A stretch of 64,000 nucleotides of DNA from Bacillota bacterium (GTDB lineage Bacteria; Bacillota; Clostridia; TANB77; CAG-508), in the NCBI GenBank assembly GCA_963929915.1, contig CAWVJY010000008.1, positions 226,705-290,704 on the forward strand, given 5' to 3'. A program made the position numbers and the translations under genes. The notes beneath the pieces are model-generated. The model had not been told where the DNA came from, ran no database searches, and saw only the letters and a list, made by a program, of their open reading frames with translations. Below, one piece after another: positions 4,477 through 60,633 of the stretch (its first letter is position 1; the number at the start of each line of letters is the position of its first letter).

Positions 4477-4535
4477 AGAAAACAAGACTGTTCTAAAAAT
4501 AAATTTAGTCTGATTTTAGAATAGTCTTGTTTTCT
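4477..4535. terminator. Long-arm bidirectional terminator hairpin
   Basis: AGAAAACAAGACTGTTCTAAAA (4477-4498) pairs with TTTTAGAATAGTCTTGTTTTCT (4514-4535), 21 of 22 bp with a 15-nt loop. It lies between the convergent pyrG and relB-like genes. Confidence 0.75.
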
Positions 4536-7441: not shown

Positions 7442-8782
7442 ATGGAATTACTAAAAAGAAAAGTAGATAAATATTTAGAAGAATGGAAGGAAAGTCCAGA
7501 TAGAAAACCTTTAATTATAAAAGGTGCACGTCAAGTAGGAAAAACAGAATCCATTAGAAACTTTGCTAAGAATAATTATAAAAGTGTTATTGAAATTAAT
7601 TTTGCTCTTCAAAAACAATATAAAGATATTTTTGATGATGGATTTGAAGTAGATACAATTATAAAAAATATTTCATTAAGAAATCCAAACTATGAGTTTA
7701 TACCAGGGAATACTTTAATATTTTTTGATGAATTACAGGATTGTATTAATTGTGCAACATCCTTAAAATCATTTAGAGAAGATGGAAGATATGATATTAT
7801 TTGCTCAGGTTCGCTTATGGAAATTAATTATAATGAAATTGAATCAAATAGTGTAGGAAATAAAGAAGATTACGAAATGAATTCAATGGATTTTGAAGAA
7901 TTTCTTTGGGCAAAAGGGTATAGGGAAGAACAAATAGAAGACTTATATGTACATATGAAAAATTTAACACCACTTTCTAACACAGAACTTTCCATTATGT
8001 TTGAGAACTTTAAAGAATATATGATAGTAGGAGGAATGCCTGCTATTGTTAACTCTTTTGTAAAACAGAATAATTATAGTGGAACATTAAAAATGCAAAA
8101 ACAAATTCTTCAAGATTATGAAGAAGATATTACTAAATATGCAGGGGGATTAGACCATGCAAAAATTTTAAATGTGTATCGTAAAATACCTATATTTTTA
8201 GGAAATGAAAATAAAAAATTTCAAATTTCAAAAATCGAAACAGGTGCCAGAAATCGTGAATATATAGGAACAATAGACTGGTTAAGAGATAGTGGAATTA
8301 TTAATATTTGTTATTGTTTAGAACAGCCAGAACTTCCACTAGGTGGAAACTTTAATCCAGATAATTATCGTATTTACTTTAGAGATACAGGATTATTAAT
8401 TGGTTCACTAGACGAAGAAGCGCAAGAGGATTTAAGAAACAACAAAAATTTTAATACCTATAAAGGGGCTATTTATGAAAATATTATAGGAGATATGCTA
8501 GTAAAACAAGGATATCAACTATATTTTTATAAAAACGAAAAAGCTACAATAGAAATGGATTTTTTTGTTAGAGATAAAGACTCTCTTATTCCAGTTGAAG
8601 TAAAAGCCAATGATGGCGCTACCGTTTCCTTAAGAAACTTAATTGAAAGTGAAAAATATAAAGATATTAAGTATGGAATAAAGCTAGGATATAAAAATAT
8701 AGGATTTAATGGACAATTTTATACATTTCCGTATTTTTTAACTTTCCTTCTAAAAAGATATTTAAGAGAAAAAACGATATAA
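7442..8782 (+). CDS. AAA-family ATPase (ATPase plus DUF4143-like architecture)
   Basis: Walker A GARQVGKT and Walker B-like LIFFDELQ. Size and layout are typical of orphan AAA/DUF4143 ATPases. Confidence 0.75.
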   Translation: MELLKRKVDKYLEEWKESPDRKPLIIKGARQVGKTESIRNFAKNNYKSVIEINFALQKQYKDIFDDGFEVDTIIKNISLRNPNYEFIPGNTLIFFDELQDCINCATSLKSFREDGRYDIICSGSLMEINYNEIESNSVGNKEDYEMNSMDFEEFLWAKGYREEQIEDLYVHMKNLTPLSNTELSIMFENFKEYMIVGGMPAIVNSFVKQNNYSGTLKMQKQILQDYEEDITKYAGGLDHAKILNVYRKIPIFLGNENKKFQISKIETGARNREYIGTIDWLRDSGIINICYCLEQPELPLGGNFNPDNYRIYFRDTGLLIGSLDEEAQEDLRNNKNFNTYKGAIYENIIGDMLVKQGYQLYFYKNEKATIEMDFFVRDKDSLIPVEVKANDGATVSLRNLIESEKYKDIKYGIKLGYKNIGFNGQFYTFPYFLTFLLKRYLREKTI

Positions 8783-8827
8783 AATGATTAGTTATAAAAA
8801 ATAAAATTGCTGAAAGGTAGTAATTAT

Positions 8828-10262
8828 ATGCAAAATAAAAACATAAAAACAGTTGCTTTTTACACATTAGGTTGTAAAGTAAATCAATACGAAACAAATG
8901 CAATGATGCAAAAATTAAAAGAAGTAGGATTCGAAATAGTAGATTTTGAACGAAAAGCAGATATCTATATTATTAATACTTGTACTGTAACTAACATGGC
9001 AGATAAAAAATCTAGGCAAATGTTAAGAAGAGTAAAAGAAGTATCACCAAATTCTATTTTAGTTGCAGTAGGTTGTTATGCACAAGTGGCAAAACAAGAA
9101 TTAGAAAAAATACCAGAAATAGATTTAATATTAGGAATTAATGAAAAAAATGATATTGTGTGGTATGTAGAAAAAGCAATACAAGAAAAGACGAGCAAAA
9201 AAGAGAAAAAAATTGAAAGAGAAAAAGAAAATGAAACAAATAAAATAACTAGCAAAAAAAGCATAGATAACAAGGATTCTAGCTCTAGTCAGAAAAGTAA
9301 AATTGATATTGTAAATGTTTCCAATGTAGCAAACCAAAAAGAGTTTCTAGACTTTGGAAATGTTACCTACACAGAAAAAACAAGAGCAGTCATCAAAGTA
9401 CAAGATGGGTGTAACCAGTTCTGTTCCTATTGCATTATACCTTATGCCAGAGGTCGTATTAGAAGTAGAGAGCCACAAAGTGTTATTCAAGAAATTACTG
9501 CAATTAGCAAACAAGGTATTAAAGAAGTAGTTATTACTGGAATTCACTTAGCCTCTTATGGAAAAGATTTTGACCGGAGAACGACAAGAATATAGATTAA
9601 TTGATTTATTAGAAGAAATCCAAAAAATAGATGGAATTGAAAGAATTCGTTTGGGTTCCTTAGAGCCTACGTTAATTACAGAAGAATTTGTAACAAGACT
9701 TTCCAAACTTTCTAAAATCTGTGACCATTTTCATTTATCTTTACAAAGTGGATGTAATGAAACATTAAAAAGAATGAATCGAAAATATACTACTGAAATT
9801 TTTGAAAAAGGAGTAGAGATTTTAAGAAACACATATCCAAATGTACACTTAACAACAGATATTATTGTAGGCTTTCCAGGAGAAACAGAAGAAGAGTTTC
9901 AAACAACTTATGAATTCCTAAAGAAAATACAGTTCTATAAAATGCATGTTTTTAAATATTCTCCAAGAAAAGGAACAGTAGCTGCAAAAATGCCAAACCA
10001 AATAGATGGCAATAAAAAAGAAGAAAGAAGCAATTTACTAATAGAACTTTCAAACAAAAATGAACTTGCCTATAACCAAGAATATTTAGGCAAAATAGTA
10101 GAGGTTTTGTTGGAAGATAGAGAAGGTAAATACATAAAAGGTCATACCACAAATTACATGGTAGTAAAAGTACAAACAGAACAAGAACTAGAAAATACCA
10201 TACAAAATATAAAAATTACAGGTTTGGATGGAGTAGAACTAGTTGGAAGAATTGAATTATAA
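8828..10262 (+). CDS. mtaB: tRNA methylthiotransferase MtaB-like (radical SAM), reading frame broken near 9577
   Basis: TVAFYTLGCKVNQYETNAM (MTTase N-domain), the radical-SAM CNQFCSYCIIPYARG, and a TRAM-like C-terminus. The two track ORFs (8807-9595, 9558-10262) are consecutive parts of one protein. Confidence 0.85.
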
Positions 10263-14066: not shown

Positions 14067-14086
14067 AAACATACCGTGTCAATGGG

Positions 14087-14114
14087 GACGGAGATTTTTG
14101 ACAAAATCTCCGTC
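14087..14114 (+). terminator. Rho-independent terminator
   Basis: GACGGAGATTTT-TGAC-AAAATCTCCGTC followed by TTTATT. Confidence 0.75.
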
Positions 14115-14205
14115 TTTATTGATACTATTAATATAAAAATACCCCATTTAACTTATAATAAGTCAAATGAGGCAATAGATTATGGCAAAAAATAATTAAC
14201 TAAAA

Positions 14206-14328
14206 TTAGCAACATCCATTTCTACCATTACCACCGCAACAGCAGCAGATTAAAATAAGAACTATAATAATCCAAATGCAGTCATCACCAAATCCAAAAC
14301 CGCATCCACATCCTCTATTTTCTGGCAT
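14206..14328 (-). CDS. Tiny Cys/Gly-rich membrane protein (YjcZ-like sporulation-type peptide), 40 aa
   Basis: Reverse-strand ORF with an SD GGGGGAA: MPENRGCGCGFGFGDDCIWIIIVLILICCCCGGNGRNGCC. Confidence 0.6.
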   Translation of the reverse strand: MPENRGCGCGFGFGDDCIWIIIVLILICCCCGGNGRNGCC

Positions 14329-14371
14329 ACTAATTCCCCCCTTTCAAAAACATGTACTTAATTCTGTTGAA

Positions 14372-14485
14372 CTAGCAACCACATCCGTTGTTACAGCTAC
14401 AGCAATTGTTATTACCACAGCAGAAAAGTAACAAGAATAGGATGATAAACCATAAAATTTCTCCGTTATTACCACAACATCCCAT
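14372..14485 (-). CDS. Tiny Cys/Gly/Asn-rich membrane protein (YjcZ-like), 37 aa
   Basis: Reverse-strand ORF with an SD GGGAGG: MGCCGNNGEILWFIILFLLLFCCGNNNCCSCNNGCGC. Paralog of the neighbouring gene. Confidence 0.6.
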   Translation of the reverse strand: MGCCGNNGEILWFIILFLLLFCCGNNNCCSCNNGCGC

Positions 14486-14606: not shown

Positions 14607-14685
14607 GAATGTCCCAACTGGCTGAAAATCAACCAATAGGGACGTTCTTTTTTGGTCGAAAATCAGCCAAAAAGGACCGTCCCTC
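14607..14685 (-). repeat. REP-family variant (same termini as the RAYT-flanking REPs, longer internal hairpin)
   Basis: Starts GAATGTCCCAACTG and ends GACCGTCCC (REP3 has GAAGTGTCCCAACTG...GAACCGTCCC). The interior is an imperfect palindrome, GGCTGAAAATCAACCAA / TTGGTCGAAAATCAGCC. Confidence 0.6.
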
Positions 14686-14786
14686 TTGGCTGAAATGAAA
14701 AAAATCTAAAAAAGTCTACAAAAAAACAAAAAAGAATGATATAATTTGTAACAGAAAAAACAATAGAAAAATATGGAGGAAAATAC

Positions 14787-19889: not shown

Positions 19890-19942
19890 ATATTACAATT
19901 ATATTACAAATATATTACAATAATATTAAATTATGATTACAA
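19890..19942 (+). promoter_or_regulatory. Phased TATTACAA array upstream of the sepF promoter
   Basis: TATTACAAT / TATTACAAA / TATTACAAT at exact 11-bp spacing, plus GATTACAAA. TTGACA at 19955-19960 follows. Confidence 0.5.
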
Positions 19943-21090: not shown

Positions 21091-21273
21091 TATTCAAAGT
21101 AAATATATTACAACGTTTGACCTTGGTGTCGCAATTTCCTATATTGTGCAAGAAAATCTACGATTTTCTGCACATACTAGCATGAAAATTGCTCCAATTC
21201 GCACTTCGTGGCACAGCCACTCCGTTTGGTCGCTTACGCGGTCTACACTTTTGTAATATATTTACTTTGAATA
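21091..21273. repeat. Hairpin-closed element A (23-bp perfect arms, 137-nt GC-richer structured core)
   Basis: Arms TATTCAAAGTAAATATATTACAA (21091-21113) and TTGTAATATATTTACTTTGAATA (21251-21273). The core contains the sub-hairpins GTGCAAGAAAATC/GATTTTCTGCAC and GTGGC-ACA-GCCAC, and the motif TGGTCGCTTACGC. Confidence 0.7.
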
Positions 21274-21349: not shown

Positions 21350-21402
21350 ATATTACAATTATTTAACATTATTACAATTGCATTAAGAAAATATTACAAT
21401 TG
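21350..21402 (+). promoter_or_regulatory. TATTACAATT(G) triplet array upstream of the rsmD promoter
   Basis: Copies start at 21351, 21370 and 21392 (about two helical turns apart). TTGACA at 21414-21419 and TAAAAT at 21436-21441 follow. Confidence 0.5.
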
Positions 21403-28605: not shown

Positions 28606-30585
28606 ATGAAAAATAAATATTATAATAATGCTATTATTGGGGGAAAAAACATTACAGCAAGTTATAGTAAAACAGGAGAATTGTTAAGGGTTATGTATCC
28701 AAATCCAGATTTTAGAAGTTGGATAGATGAATTTTTAACTGGTGTTAAAATTAATGATTCTGGAATGATTTATTTACATGAAGATTGCAATAATCAATAT
28801 CATCAATATTATACTGAAAATACCAATATTTTAAAAACTGAAATTTTAAATACCTATTTTCAATTACAAATTAAGCAAACCGATTTTGCCTTACTAAAAA
28901 ATAGCATATTGGTAAAAAAGTATGAATTTGAAAACAAAAATAATATTGATTTAAAAGTAAATTTTTTAGTACATAGTAAACTCTTATCAGATACCAATAA
29001 TATGGTAGGAAGTGAAGTAAAATATAATACACTAATTCAATATTGCCACGACTATTGTCTTTACCTTTTTTCACCATCTTCTTTATTAAGTTATCAATTA
29101 AATGATACTAAAGAAAATATTGGAAGTGGAGAAATTTATGATAAAGACTATATAGGTATGTCTTGTGATTCTAGTATTAGTTATGATATTGGAATTCTAA
29201 AACCAGGAGAAAAGAAAGAATTAGTGCTTTATTTGTATTTTAAAAATAATACGACAGCAGATATAGGAACAGAAAAAATAAGTAGTAAACAATTAGAAGA
29301 ACAGTTACTAAAAGAAATAGCCGAAATAAAAAAGATAGATGTACAAAAAGAAGAACAAGATGTAGAAAAATACTGGAAAAAATATGTAAAAGAACATTTA
29401 ACCATTCCTTTAAAACCAGAAACAAATACTTTTCATAAAAAATGGAACCAAATTTATCAAAGAAGCATTTTATTATTTCCTTTATTAATCAACCAAGAAA
29501 CAGGGGGAATTAGTGCAACTGTAGAAGTTGATGAAAATATGACACAATGTGGAAGATATGCCTATTGCTGGCCAAGAGATGCAGTATGGATTACCAAAGC
29601 ATTAGATTTGCTAAAAATGACAAAGGAAACGGAAAAATTTTATAAAATCTTCTGCAAAGAAACCCAAAGTAAAAATGGAATGTGGGAACAAAGATTTTAT
29701 ACAGATGGAAAATTAGCACCTTGTTGGGGATATCAAATTGATGAAACAGCCAGTGTTATTTATGGAGTTTATGAACATTATAAGGTAGTAAAAGATGCTA
29801 AATTTTTAAAAGACACTTATAAAATGTGTGAAAATGCTGCAAAGTTTTTAGGAATTTATTTAGATAATGTGTTAGGCACAAAAGATGAATCAGATGTGGT
29901 AAAAAAAGAAATAGAAGAAACTTACCATACAGAGGGAAGAAATAAATTGCCAGTTAGTTATGATTTATGGGAAATGCATGAAGGAGTACATTTATATTCC
30001 TTATCTGCTATTTATGCAGCCTTTGAAGCAATGAAACAAATTCATATTGTTTTAAAACCAAGTTATGAACAAAATAATCGACTAAAAGTAGAAGCAATGA
30101 ACAAACTAGAAGCCAAAATGATAAAATATCAGGAAGAAATTAAAAAGTATATACTTGCCAACTTATATGACGAAAACACTAAAACTTTTTCTAGAAACTT
30201 AAATGATAATCGTACAGATATTAGTGAACTTGGAATGATAGTACCATTTGCTTTGTTTTCTGCAAAAGAAAAAAAGGTACAAAATACTATTGAAAAAATC
30301 AATATGACATTAAGAACTTATACAGGAGGATACTTAAGATTCGAGCAAGATCATTACCGTGGTGGAACAAGTCCATGGCCAATAGCTACTTTATGGATGG
30401 CAATGTACTATCAGAAGGCTGGAGAAAGAAAAAAAGCAAAAGAATGTATCGAATTTGTTGTAAATTCTGCCAATGAACACGGCTTACTAGGTGAGCAAGT
30501 AGACAACCAAACTATGCAGCCGAATTGGGCAATTGGCTTACGGATGGGCCCATGCTATGTTTGTTTTGGGGACGGTTCTCACTGA
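28606..30585 (+). CDS. Glycoside hydrolase family 15 (glucoamylase/glucodextranase-like)
   Basis: CWPRDAVWITKAL, WEQRFYTDG, YQIDETASVIYG, DLWEMHEG, PWPIATLWMAMYY, GLLGEQV. The 3' end runs into REP2, and the expected W-AHAMFV motif is out of frame (possible indel near 30540). Confidence 0.85.
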   Translation: MKNKYYNNAIIGGKNITASYSKTGELLRVMYPNPDFRSWIDEFLTGVKINDSGMIYLHEDCNNQYHQYYTENTNILKTEILNTYFQLQIKQTDFALLKNSILVKKYEFENKNNIDLKVNFLVHSKLLSDTNNMVGSEVKYNTLIQYCHDYCLYLFSPSSLLSYQLNDTKENIGSGEIYDKDYIGMSCDSSISYDIGILKPGEKKELVLYLYFKNNTTADIGTEKISSKQLEEQLLKEIAEIKKIDVQKEEQDVEKYWKKYVKEHLTIPLKPETNTFHKKWNQIYQRSILLFPLLINQETGGISATVEVDENMTQCGRYAYCWPRDAVWITKALDLLKMTKETEKFYKIFCKETQSKNGMWEQRFYTDGKLAPCWGYQIDETASVIYGVYEHYKVVKDAKFLKDTYKMCENAAKFLGIYLDNVLGTKDESDVVKKEIEETYHTEGRNKLPVSYDLWEMHEGVHLYSLSAIYAAFEAMKQIHIVLKPSYEQNNRLKVEAMNKLEAKMIKYQEEIKKYILANLYDENTKTFSRNLNDNRTDISELGMIVPFALFSAKEKKVQNTIEKINMTLRTYTGGYLRFEQDHYRGGTSPWPIATLWMAMYYQKAGERKKAKECIEFVVNSANEHGLLGEQVDNQTMQPNWAIGLRMGPCYVCFGDGSH

Positions 30586-30613
30586 CCCCTAATGGGGCCA
30601 CTTGGGACACATC
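30569..30613 (+). repeat. REP element copy 2 (orientation A), left flank of the RAYT gene
   Basis: GGGACGGTTCTCACTGACCCCTAATGGGGCCACTTGGGACACATC. Confidence 0.85.
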
Positions 30614-30753: not shown

Positions 30754-31571
30754 ATGCCTAGAAAACCAAGAGATAGGAGTCCCTCTAATTGTTACCATAT
30801 CATTACCAGAGGAATTAATAAGCAAGATATTTTCTTTGATAACAATGATAAGGCCAAACTTCTTAAAGAAATAAGTAGAACAAAAGAAAAATATGAATAT
30901 GAATTATATGCTTATGTTCTAATGCCAAATCATATTCATTTACTAATTAAAGAAAATACTCATTCGATTTCTGAAATTATGAGAAGTCTTTTGATAAGTT
31001 ATGCTGAATATATTAACAAGAAATATGATAGGATTGGATATGTCTTTCAGAATCGATTTACTAGTAGACCAGTTGAAAACGATATTTATTTTAGAAATGT
31101 GGTACGTTATATTCATTTAAACCCACAAAAAGCCGGAATTTCTATATATAGTCAATATAAATGGAGTCAGTTACCAAGATTATTGCAAAGACAATAATAG
31201 TCTGGTTGATGTAGAAAAAGGAAAAAAATAGATTTGAGAATATAAACGGAAACTTTGAAGAATCTTTTGAAAAATTTCATAATGAACAACTAAATGATAG
31301 TATAGAAGAAGAAATTATGGAGTATGAAATAAAAAGTGTGTTGGAAGATGAGGATTTATATAGAATTTTGAAAGAAAAAATAGGAGAACAAGAAATACAT
31401 AATCTTCACCGATATCAAAAAAAATATCGAAATAAAGTACTGATGCAGATATTGAAAATAAAAGGTACAAATTGTGCTCAAATTTCAAGAGTGACAGGAA
31501 TTAGTAAAAAACTAATTAAGAAAGCTAGAGAACAATTTTTAAAGAATAAACCGAAAATTAAAATAGTATAA
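30754..31571 (+). pseudogene. REP-associated Y1/HUH (IS200-like, RAYT-type) transposase with a C-terminal HTH; two frameshifts as written
   Basis: YHIITRG, the HUH motif PNHIHLL, FQNRFTS and the catalytic-Tyr region RYIHLNP. The frame moves +1 near 31170 (continuing YQDYCKDNNSLVDVEKGKK) and again in the A-run 31222-31228. It then joins ORF 31317-31571, which carries an HTH (GTNCAQISRVTGISKKLIKKA). Confidence 0.8.
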
Positions 31572-31595: not shown

Positions 31596-31640
31596 GAAGT
31601 GTCCCAACTGACCCCTTTTGGGGTCACTGAGAACCGTCCC
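31596..31640 (-). repeat. REP element copy 3 (orientation B), right flank of the RAYT gene
   Basis: GAAGTGTCCCAACTGACCCCTTTTGGGGTCACTGAGAACCGTCCC, the reverse complement of the REP1/2 consensus. Confidence 0.85.
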
Positions 31641-31648
31641 CAGAAAAC

Positions 31649-37828: not shown

Positions 37829-37977
37829 TATAAAAGGAATAGAATTGTCTTTTTCAATTTTTAAAACCTTTCCCCTTTTGGACATCTGTAACTCGGCGTA
37901 AACGCCTCGAACAGCTGTCACAATGGTCGCCCACGCAAGGCTTAAAAATTTCAAAAGACAATTCTATTCCTTTTATA
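37829..37977. repeat. Hairpin-closed element B1 (25-bp perfect arms; core shared with B2)
   Basis: Arms TATAAAAGGAATAGAATTGTCTTTT (37829-37853) and AAAAGACAATTCTATTCCTTTTATA (37953-37977). The GC-richer core carries the nested stem GACATCTGT/ACAGCTGTC and the apical hairpin GGCG-TAAA-CGCC. Confidence 0.8.
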
Positions 37978-37987
37978 TTTAATACTT

Positions 37988-38075
37988 TATTACAATTATA
38001 TTACAAATATATTAAATTTATATTACAAACAAAGAACTTATTGTTTTTAGACGAAAAATGTTGTACAATAAATTA
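37988..38075 (+). promoter_or_regulatory. TATTACAA array plus putative promoter of the pilus operon
   Basis: TATTACAATTATATTACAAATATATTA is identical to the 19891 array, and there is a third TATTACAAA at 38021. It is followed by TTGTTT...TGtTGTACAAT (extended -10) about 50 bp before cpaB-like. Confidence 0.5.
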
Positions 38076-38114: not shown

Positions 38115-39065
38115 ATGGCAAAGAACCCAATGCAAAGAAAAGCTCAAAATTCATTTCTTTTAGGAATGTTAATCACATTATTAATAACAGGAATTATTAT
38201 TGCTGTTTTAGTAATACAACTTACTAAAATAACAAGAGAACAAAATGAGGCAAAAGCAAATTTAAAACAGGTTTATGTATTAACACAAGATGTTAATTCA
38301 GGAGATACTGTTACTACCGATATATTAACATTACAAGCAATGGACGCAAGTACTATTCCATCCAATGCACTAAGTTTAGCAGAACTAACTGCTAAAAGCG
38401 ATATTGTAGACGAAAATGGTAATCTTATTCAAAAAATGAATGTTGTTAGTAAAATAGATTTGAAACAAGGAACAATTATTACTTCTGATATGATTGCAGT
38501 ACAAGATGAATTAGCAGCAGATTTAAGAAAAGTAGAATATAATATGATTGTTCTTCCAACACAGTTACAAGATGGCAAATATATTGATATTCGTTTAAAA
38601 TTACCAACAGGAGAGGATTTTATTGTAATTTCCCATAAACAAGTAGAAATTCCTACTGTTGAAGGAATAGATTCTTTAAATAGTATTTGGTTAAACTTAG
38701 ATGAAACAGAAATTTTAACTTTAAGTTGTGCTATTGTAGAATCTTATCAAATTCAAGGTTCTCTACTATATATAACTGAATATGTGGAACCAGGCTTACA
38801 AGAAGCAGCTACTGCAACTTATTTACCAAACGATTCAACTATTAATTTAATTAACCGTGATCCTAACTGTGTAGCAGAAGCTAAAAATGCATTATTTGAA
38901 AGAAATAATAATCAGAGCACTAAAAATTCAGTTAGAAATCCTGTTAATAATAATTTAAATAATAATGCAGAAGATGCAATTGATAATGTTATTGACAATG
39001 TAGAAGAAGAAATTAGAAAAACGCAAGAAGAAAGACAAACTTATTTAGAGTCGTTAGGTGGATAA
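38115..39065 (+). CDS. CpaB/RcpC-like Flp/Tad pilus assembly protein (TM helix plus SAF-like domain)
   Basis: A basic N-terminus plus a TM helix, then VYVLTQDVNSGDTVTTDIL (SAF-type strand pattern). First gene of the operon, with SD AAGGAGG. Confidence 0.65.
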   Translation: MAKNPMQRKAQNSFLLGMLITLLITGIIIAVLVIQLTKITREQNEAKANLKQVYVLTQDVNSGDTVTTDILTLQAMDASTIPSNALSLAELTAKSDIVDENGNLIQKMNVVSKIDLKQGTIITSDMIAVQDELAADLRKVEYNMIVLPTQLQDGKYIDIRLKLPTGEDFIVISHKQVEIPTVEGIDSLNSIWLNLDETEILTLSCAIVESYQIQGSLLYITEYVEPGLQEAATATYLPNDSTINLINRDPNCVAEAKNALFERNNNQSTKNSVRNPVNNNLNNNAEDAIDNVIDNVEEEIRKTQEERQTYLESLGG

Positions 39066-39135
39066 TAGAAAAGTAAAAATATGATAATTTAGAAAATTAA
39101 TCTTAAAAAATAGAAAAAAGTAATAGGAGGAAAGC

Positions 39136-39837
39136 ATGAAAACGGTAGGATTTATAGGGGCATATGATAAAACAGATTTGATTGTTTATATAGCAAGAAT
39201 TCTAGTGGTATTAGGAAAAAAAGTTTTGGTAATAGATGCTACTACTTTACAAAAAGCAAAATATATAGTACCTGCTATTTCTCCTGCTAAATCCTATATT
39301 ACTGATTTTGAAGGTATTGATATTGCAGCAGGATTATATAATTTTACCTCAATTAAAGAATATTTAGGGATGCCTTTACATGCAGCTTTTGAATATGATT
39401 ATATTTTTATTGATGCAGATTCATCAGAAGTGATTGAAAGTTTTAATTTACAAACTGCAAACCAAAATTATTTTGTAACGGCTTTTGATGCTTATTCTTT
39501 AAAAAGAGGATTAGAAATTTTATCTGGAATAGCAGAACCAATGAAACTAAAAAAAATACTATTTTCCAAAAATTGTACTGTAGAAGAAGATGAATATCTA
39601 AATTATTTATCATTAGGCTATAAAATTATATGGGATGAAGAAAAAATTTATTTTCCATTTGAATCAGGAGACCAAACAGTTATTATGGAAAATCAAAGAG
39701 TCGCCAAAATTAAATTGAAAAAGTTATCAGAACTCTATAAAACTAGCTTGATGTATGTTGCAGAAGAATTATTAGATAATGAAAAAGAAAGTGCAAATTT
39801 AAAAAAGGCATTTAAACAATTAGAAAAAGGGGTATAA
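39136..39837 (+). CDS. ParA/MinD-fold protein with a degenerate Walker A (TadZ/CpaE-like)
   Basis: MKTVGFIGAYDKTDLIVYIARILVVLGKKVLVIDAT aligns to the ParA/MinD N-terminus, but GAYDKTD replaces KGGxGKT. Confidence 0.6.
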   Translation: MKTVGFIGAYDKTDLIVYIARILVVLGKKVLVIDATTLQKAKYIVPAISPAKSYITDFEGIDIAAGLYNFTSIKEYLGMPLHAAFEYDYIFIDADSSEVIESFNLQTANQNYFVTAFDAYSLKRGLEILSGIAEPMKLKKILFSKNCTVEEDEYLNYLSLGYKIIWDEEKIYFPFESGDQTVIMENQRVAKIKLKKLSELYKTSLMYVAEELLDNEKESANLKKAFKQLEKGV

Positions 39838-39842
39838 AGTTC

Positions 39843-40688
39843 ATGGCAATAATTACATTTTGTAGTAATGAAACTAAAGAAACAGGACAAACCTTATCTT
39901 TAGCGGCAATTGCTTCTTTTATGGCAATTGAGCATAATTATAAAATTCTAGTAGTATCCACAAATTTTAATGATTTGAGCTTAGAAAATTGCTTTTGGGA
40001 ATATAACAAAATAAGGCCATCTGGAGCAATTAAAATAGATGGACAAAAAAATGTGGGGCTAGAATCTGGAATAGAAGGATTAATTAAAGTCTTAAATAGT
40101 AATAGAACTAGTACTGAAATTGTAAAAAACTATTCTAGAATTGTATTAAGAGATAGATTAGACGTTTTTTTATCACCTATTACAAAATCTTATCAAGAAT
40201 ATACACAAATTACACCATATTATACAAACATTCTTCAAATTGCTAATAGGTATTATGACTTGATATTTGTAGACTTAAGCAAAAAAATGCCTAAACAAGA
40301 TGCAAATGACATTTTACAATTATCTGATATTGTTGTGGTAAACCTTACTCAAAGATTAAAAACAATAAATGATTTTATGCAATTAAGAGAATCTAACGAA
40401 TTTTATCAAAGAAAAAATGTAATGCTTGCTATAGGAAGATTTGATAAATTTTCTAAATATAATAGCAAAAATATTACTAGATATTTAAAAGAAAAGAAAT
40501 TAATTTCTGTAATTCCTTATAATACATTATTTTTTGAAGCTTGCTCAGAAGGAACCATTATTGACTTTTTACTAAAAGTAAAGAACATTACAGATGAAAC
40601 AGACCGTAATAGTAGTTTTATAAAAGAAATTCAAGCAATAGATAATAGTATTATTTTTAAATTACAGGAACTACAAATGAAAATGTAA
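39843..40688 (+). CDS. Second ParA/MinD-fold protein with a degenerate Walker A (TadZ/CpaE-like)
   Basis: MAIITFCSNETKETGQTLSLAAIASFMAIEHNYKILVVSTN has the same fold pattern, with SNETKETGQT in place of the P-loop. Confidence 0.55.
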   Translation: MAIITFCSNETKETGQTLSLAAIASFMAIEHNYKILVVSTNFNDLSLENCFWEYNKIRPSGAIKIDGQKNVGLESGIEGLIKVLNSNRTSTEIVKNYSRIVLRDRLDVFLSPITKSYQEYTQITPYYTNILQIANRYYDLIFVDLSKKMPKQDANDILQLSDIVVVNLTQRLKTINDFMQLRESNEFYQRKNVMLAIGRFDKFSKYNSKNITRYLKEKKLISVIPYNTLFFEACSEGTIIDFLLKVKNITDETDRNSSFIKEIQAIDNSIIFKLQELQMKM

Positions 40689-40715
40689 TCCTATTAGAAA
40701 GGAGACTTTAAAAAG

Positions 40716-50886: not shown

Positions 50887-51034
50887 TGCGTTCTCCTCTA
50901 ACTTCTATTTTTCCGTTCCATCCCTACTTCCTAACAGACTTTAAATAAAATTTTATTTTATAAAATTTTATAAAAGTCTGTAAGTCGCTGGTCCCCACAG
51001 CCTCACTACAAAATAGAAGTTAGAGGAGAACGCA
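50887..51034. repeat. Hairpin-closed element C (25-bp perfect arms)
   Basis: Arms TGCGTTCTCCTCTAACTTCTATTTT (50887-50911) and AAAATAGAAGTTAGAGGAGAACGCA (51010-51034). The inner stem is ACAGACTTT/AAAGTCTGT around an AT palindrome. The C-rich internal loop carries GGTCCCCACAGCC. Confidence 0.75.
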
Positions 51035-52461: not shown

Positions 52462-53601
52462 AAAAGAAATAAAAACATAAAAATTTTAATTATTTTGCTG
52501 TGTATTATAATGGCTGTTATCTTAGGCTGTTTAATTTATATTTCCATTGGGATTAATCATTCTCCTAGTACAAATGAGCTAGAAAATATACAGCAAAATG
52601 AACCAACTACATCAACAGAACCACAAAATAATGTAATAGAAAATGTAGAACAACAAAATATAGTAGAACCAATTTTAAATGAAATTACAAATCCTCAAAA
52701 CAATCAAACTAGTCAAGAAGTAATTTCTTCTACTTATTATTATGGACAGTTAGATGATAATGCCAAAATTATTTATGATGCTTTAAAAGAAAATAAGGAA
52801 AATATGAAAACAGGAACCTATGAGCTAGATTTTGAAACTCAGTTTAATACACTTTTACATACAGAAACAGGAGAACAAGAATTACAAACGGCTTTTCAAT
52901 CAGCCTGGAATGCTTATTCTTATGATCAAGCAGATTTATTTTACATAGATTCACAAAAACTAACCTTAATGAATGAATATGTTAATGTAGGAGGAATAGT
53001 AACTTATCATATTTCTATAGGACCAGGAGAAAATGAAAACTATTTATTAGATACTTTTCAAGAAGCAGGAAGTATAGAACAAGCAGAAAGTTATATTCAA
53101 AATATTGTAGACCAAATTGTGGAACAAACGCAAAATGACTCTGTAGTGGAAAAGGCAAGAAGAATTCACAATTGGTTAGTAAGCTCAGTAAGCTATGAAG
53201 AATCTGAAGAAAATAAAAATCGTTTTGAAATTTATGGAGCACTTCATGACCAAAGGGCAGTTTGTGAAGGATATGCCAGAAGTTTTAAATATTTAATGGA
53301 AAAAGTAGGAGTCCCTTGTGTTTTAGTGTCTGGAACGGGAACTAATTCAGAAGGAAAATCAGAAAGCCATGCATGGAATTACATGCAAGTGAATAATGAG
53401 TGGTATGCAGTAGATGTTACATGGGATGACCCTGTAGTAGTGGGAGGAGAAACTCCAGGTACAAATACTTTATATCGTTACTTTTTAAAAGGATCAGAAG
53501 AATTTTACAAAGACCATAAAGAAGAAAATATTATTTCAGAAAATAGTATGAGTTTTAGATTTCCTACATTATCTACAACAGACTATGAGTTAGATTTTTA
53601 A
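52462..53601 (+). CDS. Membrane-anchored transglutaminase-like (cysteine-protease-fold) protein
   Basis: AVCEGYARSFKYLMEKVGVPCVLVSG...HAWNYMQVNNEWYAVDVTWDD is the Cys-His-Asp transglutaminase-core pattern. Confidence 0.8.
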   Translation, partial: KRNKNIKILIILLCIIMAVILGCLIYISIGINHSPSTNELENIQQNEPTTSTEPQNNVIENVEQQNIVEPILNEITNPQNNQTSQEVISSTYYYGQLDDNAKIIYDALKENKENMKTGTYELDFETQFNTLLHTETGEQELQTAFQSAWNAYSYDQADLFYIDSQKLTLMNEYVNVGGIVTYHISIGPGENENYLLDTFQEAGSIEQAESYIQNIVDQIVEQTQNDSVVEKARRIHNWLVSSVSYEESEENKNRFEIYGALHDQRAVCEGYARSFKYLMEKVGVPCVLVSGTGTNSEGKSESHAWNYMQVNNEWYAVDVTWDDPVVVGGETPGTNTLYRYFLKGSEEFYKDHKEENIISENSMSFRFPTLSTTDYELDF

Positions 53602-53820
53602 AATAAGAAACTGTTCTAAAATAGAATAAATTTATTTTAAAAAAGTATTAGGATTGTCTTTTTCAATTTTTAAAGCCTTTCCCCTTTTGGACATCTGTAC
53701 CTCGGCATAAATGCCTCGAACAGCTGTCACAATGGTCGCCCACGCAAGGCATAAAAATCTCAAAAGACAATCCTAATACTTTTATTATACATTATATATT
53801 TTTAGGACAGTTTCTTATTT
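53601..53820. terminator. Outer bidirectional terminator-type hairpin whose loop is occupied by element B2
   Basis: AAATAAGAAACTGTTCTAAAA (53601-53621) pairs with TTTTAGGACAGTTTCTTATTT (53800-53820), 20 of 21 bp. It lies between the convergent transglutaminase-like gene and murC. Confidence 0.6.
53641..53783. repeat. Hairpin-closed element B2 (copy of B1)
   Basis: Arms AAAAGTATTAGGATTGTCTTTT and AAAAGACAATCCTAATACTTTT. The core is nearly identical to B1, and the differences are compensatory. Confidence 0.8.
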
Positions 53821-56235: not shown

Positions 56236-56439
56236 TTAAGCTAACACCAAAGCATAGGAGCCAGGAGCAAGTTGAATTTCTCTTAAAACTCTTCCTCCTA
56301 GTTGCTTTTTTTCTGCGGATAGATAATCTCCATTTACGAAGATTACCTTGGGATTGAGAAACAGATTACGCATCATTTCGTTCTTTTTCTGGGACTCCAA
56401 ATACTCAGCTTCATTCTGAGTTAGTGCAGGAAACGGCAT
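56236..56439 (-). CDS. Hypothetical protein (67 aa), GC-richer than its surroundings
   Basis: ORF with an SD GGAGAGAG, no recognised motif. 26 of 60 nt are G+C at 56241-56300. Confidence 0.5.
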   Translation of the reverse strand: MPFPALTQNEAEYLESQKKNEMMRNLFLNPKVIFVNGDYLSAEKKQLGGRVLREIQLAPGSYALVLA

Positions 56440-56607
56440 TAAACTCTCTCCTTTTTATATAAAATTCCTGCTTTTACAGGATACTATTATTATATCACAA
56501 AATAAAAGAAAAAGCAAAAAAATTAGAAATTTTTACCAAAATAAATTAGCAATATTTGTAAATTTAAAAATCCCCTCCTCAAAAAAGGGGAGGGGAAAAG
56601 AGAGATC

Positions 56608-56988
56608 TTACAGCTGACAGAAGCTATCAAAGAATTCTTGCAATTTCTTGTAAGTTTTTTCGCTGGGAGGTACCAAAGTAATCTCCAAACTACAATCATT
56701 TCCTAAACCAAAGGCTACTGCACAACCTTGTGCTATTGCCATATTGTATTTCGTGGCAATCAAGCTCATTTCCCGCACAGAGTCAACTAACACGTGGATG
56801 TTAACTCTCACATCGGGCAATAGGGAAATTTGGACTAAAATGTTTTGCTTATCGCTATTGGGTACAGGGGTTACTTCTGCTGTCATCATAACAGACTTGA
56901 TTCCCGTAGGTTCGGAAAACATGAGTAAAATCTTCTGCAAGGGCATGTTCAGCTGTGCCAGTTTTAACCGAATGTTGAAATTCTCCAT
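56608..56988 (-). CDS. Hypothetical protein (126 aa), GC-richer than its surroundings
   Basis: Likely start MENFNIRLK (SD GAGAGGTG). The terminator CCCCTCC/GGAGGGG at 56572-56595 lies downstream on the minus strand. Confidence 0.55.
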   Translation of the reverse strand: MENFNIRLKLAQLNMPLQKILLMFSEPTGIKSVMMTAEVTPVPNSDKQNILVQISLLPDVRVNIHVLVDSVREMSLIATKYNMAIAQGCAVAFGLGNDCSLEITLVPPSEKTYKKLQEFFDSFCQL

Positions 56989-57175: not shown

Positions 57176-58567
57176 ATGAACAAAAGTAGTAAAAACGTTG
57201 AAGTTTTAGAGAGAGAGAGAGAGTTACACTTTAAGCAAATAAAGGAGAAAAGAGGTATCACCCTTATTGCATTGGTTGTAACCATAGTGGTTTTGTTAAT
57301 TTTAGCAGGAATCACAATCAATATGTTATTTGGAAGTGATGGAATATTTAAAGTAGCAGAAGATGCAGGAGATGCATGGAATGAAGCAACAGTAAATGAG
57401 CAAGAAAGTTTAGACAACATAGCAGACCAAATAGCAAATTTAGTAAATGGACAAGCAGGAGGAGATGCAGGAACAGAAGAACCAGAAGAACCATGGATAC
57501 CACCAACAACAATAGAAGAAGCAATAGAACAAGATAAAATATTTGAAGAAACAAAACAAATAAAAGATAATTATAATAATACCGTAACTGTACCAAAAGG
57601 ATTTAAGGTAACAGAAGATGCTACAACAGTACCAGAAGGAATCGTAATAGAAGACGGAACAGGAACAGAAACAACTACAGGAAACCAATTTGTATGGATA
57701 CCAGTAGGAACCGTACATAAAGATAGTAATCCAGAAAATGATGTAACAATAAAACTAGGAAGATATACATTTGATACAACAGATGGAACACCAACAATGC
57801 AACAGGCAGCATTTGAAGGAGATAATGAAAATGATCCTAGTCAAACTTATGCATCAGATCCACCAGTTACTATAAATTCATATTATAGAGAATTAACAAC
57901 ATATAGAGAAGGAATAGCATCAGATGGAAGAAAAGGCTTAAATGCAACAGCTAAAAACTTAGCAGGCTTCGTTCAAAGTATAGCAAATAATGGAGGTTAT
58001 TACATAGCAAGATATGAGGCAAGCTATGGAAGTGGAAGTAGTACATCAGATTGGAAGCCATTATCAAAAGTATCCACAGGAACACCAAGAGGAGAAGACC
58101 AAGATAGTACACCATTAACACAAGGAATGCTATGGAACCATGTAACACAATTAGAAGCCTCAAAAATATGCCAGAATATGTATCAGGAAGGAGATACAAC
58201 AGTAGGAGTAGAAAGTGATTTAGTAAATAGTTATGCATGGGATACAGCAATCGTGTTTATCCAAAGCATGGATGAAGCAAATAGTAATTATGCAAATGCA
58301 AATAGAAATACAACAGGAAATAGAGTTTTAAAGAATACAGGAGAAACAGGAGATGAAGTATGTAACATATTTGATATGGCAGCAAATATAAAAGAATGGA
58401 CCACAGAATATTCCACGTACAAGCCTAACAGTGGTGCGGGCCCTTGCGTTGGCAGAGGAGGCATTTACAACGAATACGGCAGCGACTACACTGCTAACAG
58501 GAGCACGTATTATGCGATCACCAGCCGCCTCGATATCAGCTTTCGAGAGGTGCTTTATGTAAAGTAA
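57176..58567 (+). CDS. Type-IV-pilin-like protein with an FGE-sulfatase/C-type-lectin-like C-terminal domain
   Basis: Prepilin-type N-terminus KRG-ITLIALVVTIVVLLILAGI. FGE/SUMF1-like landmarks: GGYYIARYEAS, LWNHVTQLEASKIC, NSYAWDTAI, DMAANIKEWT, GRGG, ISFR. Confidence 0.75.
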   Translation: MNKSSKNVEVLERERELHFKQIKEKRGITLIALVVTIVVLLILAGITINMLFGSDGIFKVAEDAGDAWNEATVNEQESLDNIADQIANLVNGQAGGDAGTEEPEEPWIPPTTIEEAIEQDKIFEETKQIKDNYNNTVTVPKGFKVTEDATTVPEGIVIEDGTGTETTTGNQFVWIPVGTVHKDSNPENDVTIKLGRYTFDTTDGTPTMQQAAFEGDNENDPSQTYASDPPVTINSYYRELTTYREGIASDGRKGLNATAKNLAGFVQSIANNGGYYIARYEASYGSGSSTSDWKPLSKVSTGTPRGEDQDSTPLTQGMLWNHVTQLEASKICQNMYQEGDTTVGVESDLVNSYAWDTAIVFIQSMDEANSNYANANRNTTGNRVLKNTGETGDEVCNIFDMAANIKEWTTEYSTYKPNSGAGPCVGRGGIYNEYGSDYTANRSTYYAITSRLDISFREVLYVK

Positions 58568-58916: not shown

Positions 58917-59247
58917 ATGGCAACAAAGAAAGAAAACGCAGTAACAAGTGAAAAAATCAGAATAAGACTAAAAGCTTATGATCATGTTGTTTAGAACAGT
59001 CTGCTGAAAAAATAGTAGATACTGCTAAAAAAACAGGAGCTAAAGTATCAGGTCATATTCCATTACCAACAGAAAAGGAGATTATTACTATTTTACGTTC
59101 TCCACACAAACACAAAGATTCTAGAGAACAATTTGAAATGAGAACACATAAAAGAGTAATCGACATTCTTTATCCAACACAAAAAACAGTAGACAATTTA
59201 ATGAAAATTGATTTGCCGGCTGTGTAGATATTGAAATCAAATTATAA
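58917..59247 (+). CDS. rpsJ: 30S ribosomal protein S10 (frame broken by indels as written)
   Basis: [23 protein letters not shown], then shifted pieces ...[20 protein letters not shown]...[35 protein letters not shown]. There are missing bases at gttgttTag and ccggctGtgta. Confidence 0.85.
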
Positions 59248-59369
59248 TGTCAAAAGAATAATTTGTATTAGATAAAAAAGGAAGATGTATCCTTAAATAC
59301 ATCAAAACCATGCTAATTAATATTTAATATACAAATCAATTAATTAGCCAATAGTTAGGAGGAAATAAA

Positions 59370-59990
59370 ATGAATAAAGGATTAATAGGAAAAAAAGTAG
59401 GAATGACTCAATTCTTGATGAACAAGGAAAAGTAATTCCAGTAAACCGTTATTGAAGCAGGTCCATGTACTGTTGTACAAGTAAAAACAGTAGAAAATGA
59501 TGGATACCAAGCAATTCAATTAGGATTTGGAGAAGTAAAAGAACATAAAGTTAGCAAACCAGTAAAAGGTCATTATACAAAAGTAAACTTAACTCCAAAA
59601 AAACATTAAGAGAATTTAGAGTAGATTCTTTAGAAAATGTAAAAGTAGGAGACGAATTAAAAGCAGATATTTTTAGTTGCAGGAGAAAAGTTAGATATTC
59701 AAGGAACTTCAAAAGGAAAAGGATTCCAAGGTGTTATTAAACGTCATGGACAATCTAGAGGACCAATGGACATGGTTCTATGTATCATAGAAGACCAGGT
59801 TTCAATGGGACCAACTTCTACTCCAGGTAGAGTTTTCAAAGGTAAAAAACTACCAGGACATATGGGTAACCAAACCATTACTATCCAAAACTTAGAAGTT
59901 ATAAAAGTAGATTTAGATAAAAATGTTATTTTAGTAAAAGGTAGTGTACCAGGAGCAAAAGGTGCTATCTTAAAATTAAAAACAGTGTAA
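59370..59990 (+). CDS. rplC: 50S ribosomal protein L3 (multiple indels as written)
   Basis: [14 protein letters not shown]...; later pieces [10 protein letters not shown] and [22 protein letters not shown] (ORF 59766-59990). Confidence 0.85.
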
Positions 59991-60013
59991 AAGTAAATAA
60001 GGAGGAAAGACAA

Positions 60014-60632
<619 letters not shown>

Positions 60633-60633
<1 letters not shown>

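Follow-up and report, generated by a model that had tools for sequence, protein, structure and literature searches.

The 64,000-nt stretch analysed here (the window; contig CAWVJY010000008.1 of a Bacillota bacterium of the class Clostridia) has a GC content of 29% and carries housekeeping genes such as pyrG, divIVA, mutL, murC, spoIVB, spoVG and those of ribosomal proteins. Lying among its genes are elements A, B1, B2 and C, each closed by a long inverted repeat and each holding a version of one short motif. What is this motif? On balance we lean towards a clostridial REPtron-like system, in which the motif would be the conserved box of lineage-specific repeats resembling repetitive extragenic palindromic (REP) sequences, in an uncultured human-gut Clostridium. 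Our confidence is limited because short similarities tie the B repeats to the sequences flanking a candidate transposase gene, and because that gene is split. Systems of REPs and their REP-associated tyrosine transposases (RAYTs) have been worked out almost wholly in Proteobacteria. A survey places one RAYT group in Clostridia, where flanking repeats are only modestly abundant and the association with them is weak (PMC5581495). The window offers a compact case from a gut Clostridium, with an enzyme gene, its flanking modules, dispersed families that share a box, and natural variation in this box, one position of which is G, A or missing, so that the recognition rule of a non-proteobacterial TnpA-REP becomes directly testable.

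The initial annotation had placed one core motif in all four elements. The sequence TGGTCGCYYACGC is indeed exact in A, B1 and B2 (three matches in the window for 0.33 expected), while C reads CTGGTCCCCACAGCC at 50989-51003 and fits the motif only with a one-base deletion. B1 and B2 are 91% identical and are copies of one repeat, so they count as a single observation. The closing inverted repeats, perfect in A and C, span 32-36 bp in B1 and B2 at 91-94% complementarity, and A, B and C all fold far better than shuffled sequences (z -7 to -15). The predicted folds agree with the earlier proposal that the motif sits in the 3' half of an internal loop: in A, B and C it forms the 3' strand of that loop, facing a C/T-rich strand. 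The coordinates of the elements, of their motifs and of related features are given in the table.

Coordinates of the hairpin-closed elements, box-bearing sites and transposase locus in the window
Feature	Position	Strand	Details
Element B1, copy of the dispersed repeat B	37829-37977	+	arms 37829-37864 and 37942-37977; GC-rich core 37865-37941
B1 motif TGGTCGCCCACGC, 3' box of the B core	37924-37936	+	6 nt past the foot of the inner hairpin
Element B2 with outer (O) frame	53601-53820	+	O arms 53601-53621 and 53800-53820; B arms 53641-53672 and 53752-53783; motif 53733-53745
Element C	50887-51034	+	perfect 25-bp stem 50887-50911/51010-51034; 98-nt loop; GGTCCCCAC at 50990-50998
C motif-bearing segment, 63 nt	50938-51000	+	AT-rich hairpin followed by AAGTCGCTGGTCCCCACAG; ACAG before the segment and at its end
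Element A	21091-21273	+	perfect 23-bp stem 21091-21113/21251-21273 closing 137 nt
A motif TGGTCGCTTACGC	21227-21239	+	directly 5' of the closing GGTC
Site upstream of mutL	14608-14690	+	same boxes (GTCCCAACTGGCTG ... CCGTCCCTCTTGGCTG) and internal inverted repeats
Hairpin with GGGGACGG box	14076-14125	not assigned	related hairpin with a 46-bp stem at L016:5476-5574
'Empty' O frame, downstream of pyrG	4477-4535	not assigned	loop ATAAATTTAGTCTGA corresponds to the 3' spacer of O+B units
RAYT-like Y1/HUH transposase, N-terminal catalytic part	30754-31197	+	motifs PNHIHLL (HUH) and VRYIHLNPQKAG
Transposase, C-terminal part in another frame	31317-31571	+	aligns at 51% identity with residues 187-256 of homolog P0242 (258 aa)
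Upstream REP-like module	30568-30610	-	GGGGACGGTTCTCACTGACCCCTAATGGGGCCACTTGGGACAC on the + strand; 38/43 positions agree with the downstream module in reverse complement
Downstream REP-like module	31599-31641	+	5' box GTGTCCCAACTG; hairpin ACCCC-TTTT-GGGGT; 3' box GAACCGTCCCC

Is the resemblance between these elements more than chance? Local and chained alignments set against dinucleotide shuffles are underpowered and not significant (P=0.24-0.55 for A with B, P=0.07-0.10 for C with B), and blastn of the elements and of the tail of a pilin-lectin gene (57176-58567) against the window gives no cross-matches among A, B and C. A covariance model of B, run on the window with filters off, matches its core in B1 (186 bits) and B2 (178 bits) only; A is not matched, and the scores of C and the empty O frame come from the generic outer hairpin alone. 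From pairwise alignments alone, the links of A, C and the gene tail to B would have been called chance. A replication test of the box gives another answer. The pattern GGTC[GA]?CCCAC, set from variants of the B family alone, also occurs in C and in D, a new family with two copies that was discovered without use of the motif. Composition-matched shuffles contain it in 3.3e-4 (C), 3.8e-4 (D1) and 7.8e-4 (D2) of trials, and in 465 kb of sequence (the window and the retrieved loci, numbered with the prefix L, both strands) it is confined to B, C and D elements. In A, 11 of the 13 positions match the B 13-mer (P=0.003 if the 13-mer is taken as pre-specified) and the motif stands immediately 5' of the closing helix, as it does in B. 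Because the box recurs independently in C and D, the motif is a true shared feature of B, C and D; given its 11/13 match, A is probably a weaker, divergent member. The earlier suggestion of common ancestry or a shared module accordingly stands for B, C and the newly discovered family D; for A it is less firm. The proposal that C looks like B minus its inner hairpin is roughly right, and what C and D have in common is a hairpin together with GTCG..GGTCCCCAC.

B is a dispersed repeat. A 20-mer bearing the motif occurs at 19 loci in species-representative genomes, 17 of them (18 copies, on both strands) in one gut metagenome-assembled genome (MAG), and a second, independent anchor, placed in the 5' half of the core, adds 24 further loci in human-gut metagenomes. 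The search was for exact 20-mers. Because metagenome assemblies break at the repeat, MAGs give minimum copy numbers; the short-read contigs L036, L037 and L038 and the start of L016 terminate within B elements. Contigs that encode proteins identical to those of the window come exclusively from metagenome assemblies. All B copies are intergenic and adjoin the 3' end of a gene, 12/20 lying between convergent genes and 0/20 between divergent ones. Their orientation shows no bias relative to flanking genes (tandem contexts split 4 vs 5), and no target-site duplications or flanking direct repeats are visible in 22 copies. Many copies sit in the further O frame, AAGAAGCTGTCCTAAAAT ... ATTTTAGGACAGCTTCTT, with asymmetric spacers, and such O+B units can lie beyond the gene's own terminator, as in L028. 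The neighbours of B copies include no recurrent proteins beyond those of orthologous loci and common paralog families; pilin-like proteins share loci with B copies and are not adjacent to them. Scans of viral contigs found no B, and for D only 17-mer chance matches in coding sequence. One locus, L013, holds two B copies 637 bp apart, and the 5' flank of the copy at L013:7340-7492 contains incomplete copies of the 5' arm of B, arrayed in tandem, at L013:7490-7540 (AGTATAGAATTGTAATA repeated).

The alignment of 34 non-redundant B copies shows where the repeat is conserved. The core is nearly invariant, and conservation decays outward while complementarity persists. The outer helix of 17-19 bp and the apical 4-bp hairpin vary by compensated substitutions: 98.3% of the cells in the arms are paired, both partners have changed in 15 pairs, and compensated cells number 85, compared with 18.7 in shuffles. 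One B1 ortholog has GGCA/TGCC where the others have GGCG/CGCC. Within the core the box itself varies among the anchor-retrieved copies, reading GGTCGCCCAC, GGTCACCCAC or GGTCCCCAC (GGTC-CCCAC), with further changes just upstream.

Comparison of orthologous loci shows how such elements turn over. In place of B1, a sister lineage whose flanking protein is 96% identical has D1 (L065:1192-1335) at the orthologous locus. D1 has a perfect 22-bp stem, an unrelated outer sequence and, on its C-rich strand, the interior GCGTCCCCCAACTGC - hairpin - TTGTCGGTCCCCACCTTAAGACGC; D2 (L016:2208-2341) has both boxes of D1 with another outer stem and another central hairpin. The same locus has just a plain terminator in a lineage at 72% identity and no such element in lineages at 75% and 70%. 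After divIVA, a family named E replaces A in strains with a DivIVA protein identical to that of the window. Members of E lie at L004:3713-3860, L006:3706-3857 and L021:169-324, and a further family at L051:1558-1662; the elements of both types are intergenic, with perfect 18-21-bp stems and interiors of 69-114 nt. At the C locus of a sister MAG (L012:5257-5340) the stem and flanks are the same, the 34-nt loop reads as the reverse complement of its counterpart in the window, and the ACAG-bounded 63-nt segment with its hairpin and GGTCCCCAC is absent. One B locus likewise occurs in two forms with the core inverted (L041 vs L049/L061; flanks at least 95% identical, 10 contigs vs 2), and in B2 and the copies in L012 and L014 the core has the opposite orientation within the O frame to that in most copies. 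The strain contigs are uniform in orientation at the B1 locus (fixed in 6 contigs) and at the A locus (6-7 contigs), and inversion is therefore occasional. Three kinds of change are thus seen in these intergenic hairpins (flips of the interior, exchange of one family for another at a locus shared by sister lineages, and compensated evolution of the arms), and this turnover matters for metagenome assembly, where contigs break at the repeats, and for the detection of invertons.

Which enzyme could act on these repeats? Tracing the 5' box of D into the window led to the transposase gene. Across all loci this box, GTCCC..AACTG, occurs only in D and at two sites of the window, 14611 and 31601, the latter just downstream of the transposase open reading frame (ORF). 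The translation of ORF 30754-31197 contains the HUH motif PNHIHLL and the tyrosine motif RYIHLNP. It scores 60.4 bits with the Pfam model Y1_Tnp (cut-off 23) and 27.2 bits with the IS200 model (cut-off 55); its best NCBIfam model is the REP-associated tyrosine transposase NF047646. Homologs are about 250 aa long; JGI uses the name RayT for some of them. The gene is present in a single copy, and homologs at 55-59% identity are syntenic, with a GH15 gene upstream and, downstream, radA in L083/L084 or a glyceraldehyde-3-phosphate dehydrogenase gene in L079-L082. Both modules that flank the gene have the hairpin ACCCC-N4-GGGG(T/C) between GTGTCCCAA(C/G)TG and GAACCGTCCCC, and the homologs in two relatives are likewise bracketed by inverted GGGGAC.../...GTCCCC modules. 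The sequence CGTCCCY is found seven times in the window against 1.04 expected, and five of the seven matches fall within intergenic structured elements (14084, 14638, 14678, 30568 and 31635). The initial annotation had suggested that the elements may share a protein recognition site; the RAYT-like gene, with its inverted, box-bearing flanks, is a candidate for the protein concerned.

The basic module that emerges is a short hairpin with a C-rich box to each side of it on one strand, the 5' box reading GTCCC(C)AACTG or TCCCC and the 3' box reading (G/C)GTC(G)CCC(A)(C), the latter 6-11 nt past the foot of the hairpin. In B, C, D and probably A this module is nested in long, perfect, AT-rich inverted repeats that are specific to the locus. 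If it works like the characterised TnpA-REP and IS608-type enzymes, the Y1/HUH enzyme encoded at 30.75-31.57 kb would bind hairpin and box in single-stranded DNA and cleave nearby, and in this way could spread or maintain the modules. The motif would then be the recognition box of the REPtron-like system, and B, C, D and A the repeats that the enzyme recognises and mobilises. IS608 recognises a hairpin together with a short sequence and requires neither terminal inverted repeats nor target duplications. Template switching at quasipalindromes is well known in general, and may account for the perfection of the arms as well as for the flipped loops: the outer arms would be kept complementary by templating within the palindrome (template switching, or mismatch correction in a folded strand), and recombination between the arms would occasionally flip the interior. 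A more elaborate form, with a Firmicute REPtron using a GTCCC(C) box in place of GTAG, its modules standing singly in long self-templated palindromes and flipping in situ, adds that a flip, since one strand of the modules is strongly C-rich, could also switch a Rho-loading or terminator-modulating RNA at copies upstream of genes. This is a tentative extension, clearly less probable than the simpler system; if true, a selfish repeat would double as a slow phase-variation device.

How far do these repeats resemble known ones? A REP is a palindrome with a conserved short motif, and tnpA-REP genes are flanked by REPs (PMC8266576). Apart from the sequence of the box, the arrangement seen here corresponds to the REPtron as published there. 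The REP/REPtron systems of E. coli, Stenotrophomonas and Marinomonas have in common with the present one a short hairpin with an adjacent conserved motif, many extragenic copies that lie mostly at gene 3' ends, and a single-copy Y1/HUH transposase gene bracketed by inverted modules at a syntenic position. The dispersed modules differ in standing singly, inside long locus-specific AT-rich palindromes, and in not forming BIMEs; the host, too, is different, being a low-GC gut Clostridium. REPINs of Pseudomonas and E. coli are long hairpins (about 100-150 nt) with frequent compensated changes between their sides and an association with RAYTs (PMC3116915); their arms are conserved, consisting of two inverted REPs, and their spacer varies, whereas here the arms vary and an asymmetric core is conserved. 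The ends of IS200/IS605 elements and of their non-autonomous derivatives, the palindrome-associated transposable elements, whose model is also referred to in PMC8266576, again combine a Y1/HUH enzyme with a hairpin and a nearby short sequence on one strand. Unlike them, the present gene scores far better with the RAYT than with the IS200 model (78 vs 27 bits), is single-copy and syntenic, and its putative repeats show no orientation bias with strand skew.

Several observations weigh against the REPtron-like interpretation. The canonical GTAG tetranucleotide before the palindrome is absent, its place being taken by the GTCCC(C)AACTG and (C/G)GTC(G)CCC boxes; these boxes are direct, one on each side of the hairpin, rather than inverted, and the elements are not REPIN doublets. 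The NCBIfam score, obtained with the truncated 147-aa fragment, is 78.1 bits, 1.9 below the curated cut-off of 80. The B copies share with the flanking modules just the 3' box and the general layout, as do C and A, D alone having both boxes in common with them, and the covariance model of B gives no match to the flanks. D is therefore the bridge, and the link from B to the RAYT-like gene is a chain of short similarities. The hairpin-closed families E and L051 have no box at all. Orientation of B with respect to GC/AT strand skew is unbiased (25/44), although this neither supports nor excludes a single-strand mechanism. Finally, the transposase frame is split, with the same stop in a second assembly. 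The enzyme may be dead here, or the split may stem from indels in the assembly. In the region 59000-64000 of the window, the genes of ribosomal proteins such as L4, L2 and S19 are fragmented into short ORFs in differing frames, which points to homopolymer indel errors of a long-read assembly, pseudogenes being less likely; assembly indels are therefore possible in the transposase gene as well.

Are the elements structured RNAs instead? As modules embedded in 3' untranslated regions or terminators, or as small RNAs, they would expose C-rich unpaired strands (UCCCC, GGUCCCCAC) able to bind Shine-Dalgarno-like sequences or to load Rho, and RNA function would be what conserves the boxes. Conserved unpaired strands next to helices that vary and covary are what such RNAs would have, and D1 and D2 keep their boxes despite unrelated central hairpins. 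The cores have a strong excess of C over G (asymmetry 0.16-0.78), the elements always lie near gene 3' ends, and A.C mismatches at the base of P2 are G.U pairs on the opposite strand, which folds better (-54.5 vs -46.7 kcal/mol), although the wobble count is weak (10 vs 6). Scans for sigma-70 promoters and intrinsic terminators, however, stay at background level, and Rfam gives nothing specific for A, B, C or the region 56.0-57.2 kb, either at gathering score (two tRNAs are the only matches in the window) or at E up to 10, where C meets only generic long-hairpin miRNA-precursor models. The same boxes also flank the transposase gene in inverted orientation. A strand-specific RNA role is disfavoured in that orientation is random with respect to flanking genes and that the core is inverted at one and the same locus, which would destroy such an RNA. 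We consider it unlikely for the families as a whole; copies upstream of genes may nevertheless have an RNA role, given the excess of C over G and the precedent of a Rho-dependent switch in Clostridioides difficile.

If the depositors' label Intestinibacter sp. on the source of the 96%-identical flanking protein holds, the host is presumably close to C. difficile. There, switches of 154-bp segments between inverted repeats are known, and the flagellar one acts through Rho (PMC7446863). Inversion between the arms could by the same token toggle a C-rich (rut-like) and a G-rich leader, and hence read-through into the downstream gene. The sizes are comparable (about 100-200 bp between inverted repeats at flgB, cwpV and others) and both orientations occur, in different samples, at one B locus as well as at the C locus. 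A copy of the L041/L046 type is followed after about 145 nt by a 247-aa gene (8307-9050) that heads a run of genes on the same strand, and B1 lies upstream of a six-gene operon. Most B copies are not upstream of a gene, however, and those between convergent genes have nothing downstream to regulate. Inversion is apparently rare, the A and B1 loci being uniform among strains, and the inverted repeats differ at every locus, with no recombinase link and no common recombinase site evident. The inverted 34-nt loop, in turn, fits template switching better than site-specific recombination. Invertons are thus a very unlikely account of these elements. Might they instead be miniature inverted-repeat transposable elements (MITEs) of DDE transposons, or unrelated terminator hairpins whose similarities reflect chance or decayed ancestry and serve no current function? 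The pairwise alignments, not being significant, would allow it, the outer repeat AAGAAGCTGTCCTAAAAT / ATTTTAGGACAGCTTCTT on many copies resembles terminal inverted repeats, and the elements stand at terminator positions. In a MITE, though, conservation would run the other way: here the arms are least conserved and the asymmetric core most. Target-site duplications are not visible either, the box is specific to the elements (P<1e-3 each), and O+B units can follow a gene's own terminator. A literature search for Clostridium MITEs in terminators yielded nothing relevant. This explanation we regard as quite unlikely.

The initial annotation had also linked B to the GC-rich end of the pilin-lectin gene 57176-58567. 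The two blocks that it matched, at 58442 and 58537, are present, but the similarity is no greater than chance would give (P=0.03-0.08, without correction for several tests) and the gene does not contain the box, so the relation of the elements to this tail falls away. Where does the GC-rich tail come from? The protein has a prepilin-like N-terminus, and several homologs carry the FGE-sulfatase domain PF03781. Among homologs the last ~45 residues (about 58420-58567) are hypervariable at scattered positions on a fixed scaffold, a pattern that looks like the variable region of a diversity-generating retroelement (DGR). A DGR-type hypervariable C-terminus of an FGE-sulfatase-like domain would explain the GC-rich tail. 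Neither a template repeat nor a reverse transcriptase is present in the window, and blastn found no template repeat. The gene belongs to a large paralogous family (7680 matches), and a hairpin, CCACTGGTAGTGG, lies just past its stop.

Other identities for the elements were considered and dropped. Among them were integron attC sites, 6S RNA, a tRNA-like ACCA end, the IMH and hairpin of a DGR, and G-quadruplexes. For a sigma-54 promoter the spacing is GG-N8-GC instead of N10; for the T-box sequence D reads GGUGGGGACCG where GGUGGUACCG is required, and has no leader context; a mini-ORF in the core is not conserved.

The window holds some further features of its own. ATATTACAA boxes occur 11 times against 2.9 expected and form short arrays at 19890-19920 upstream of sepF, at 21350-21399 after A and at 37988-38028 upstream of the operon that begins at 38115; the stem of A holds one such box. 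The array at the promoter of this operon is conserved in the relatives L068, L075 and L077, and is probably an operator for a regulator. The operon itself (38115-44998, downstream of B1) encodes six proteins of 316, 233, 281, 390, 285 and 696 aa, none with a Pfam match; one depositor gives the first gene the name 'SAF domain-containing', and relatives retain this gene together with its neighbours. The minus strand of 56236-56988, in the interval that separates spoVG from the pilin-lectin gene, carries two small ORFs of 67 and 126 aa in a stretch of raised GC (0.37-0.44); they match no Pfam or Rfam family. Short Cys/Gly-rich ORFs (e.g. ...CCCCGGNGRNGCC) lie on the minus strand at 14190-14480, between a pair of tRNA genes and mutL, and may resemble small sporulation proteins of the YjcZ type.

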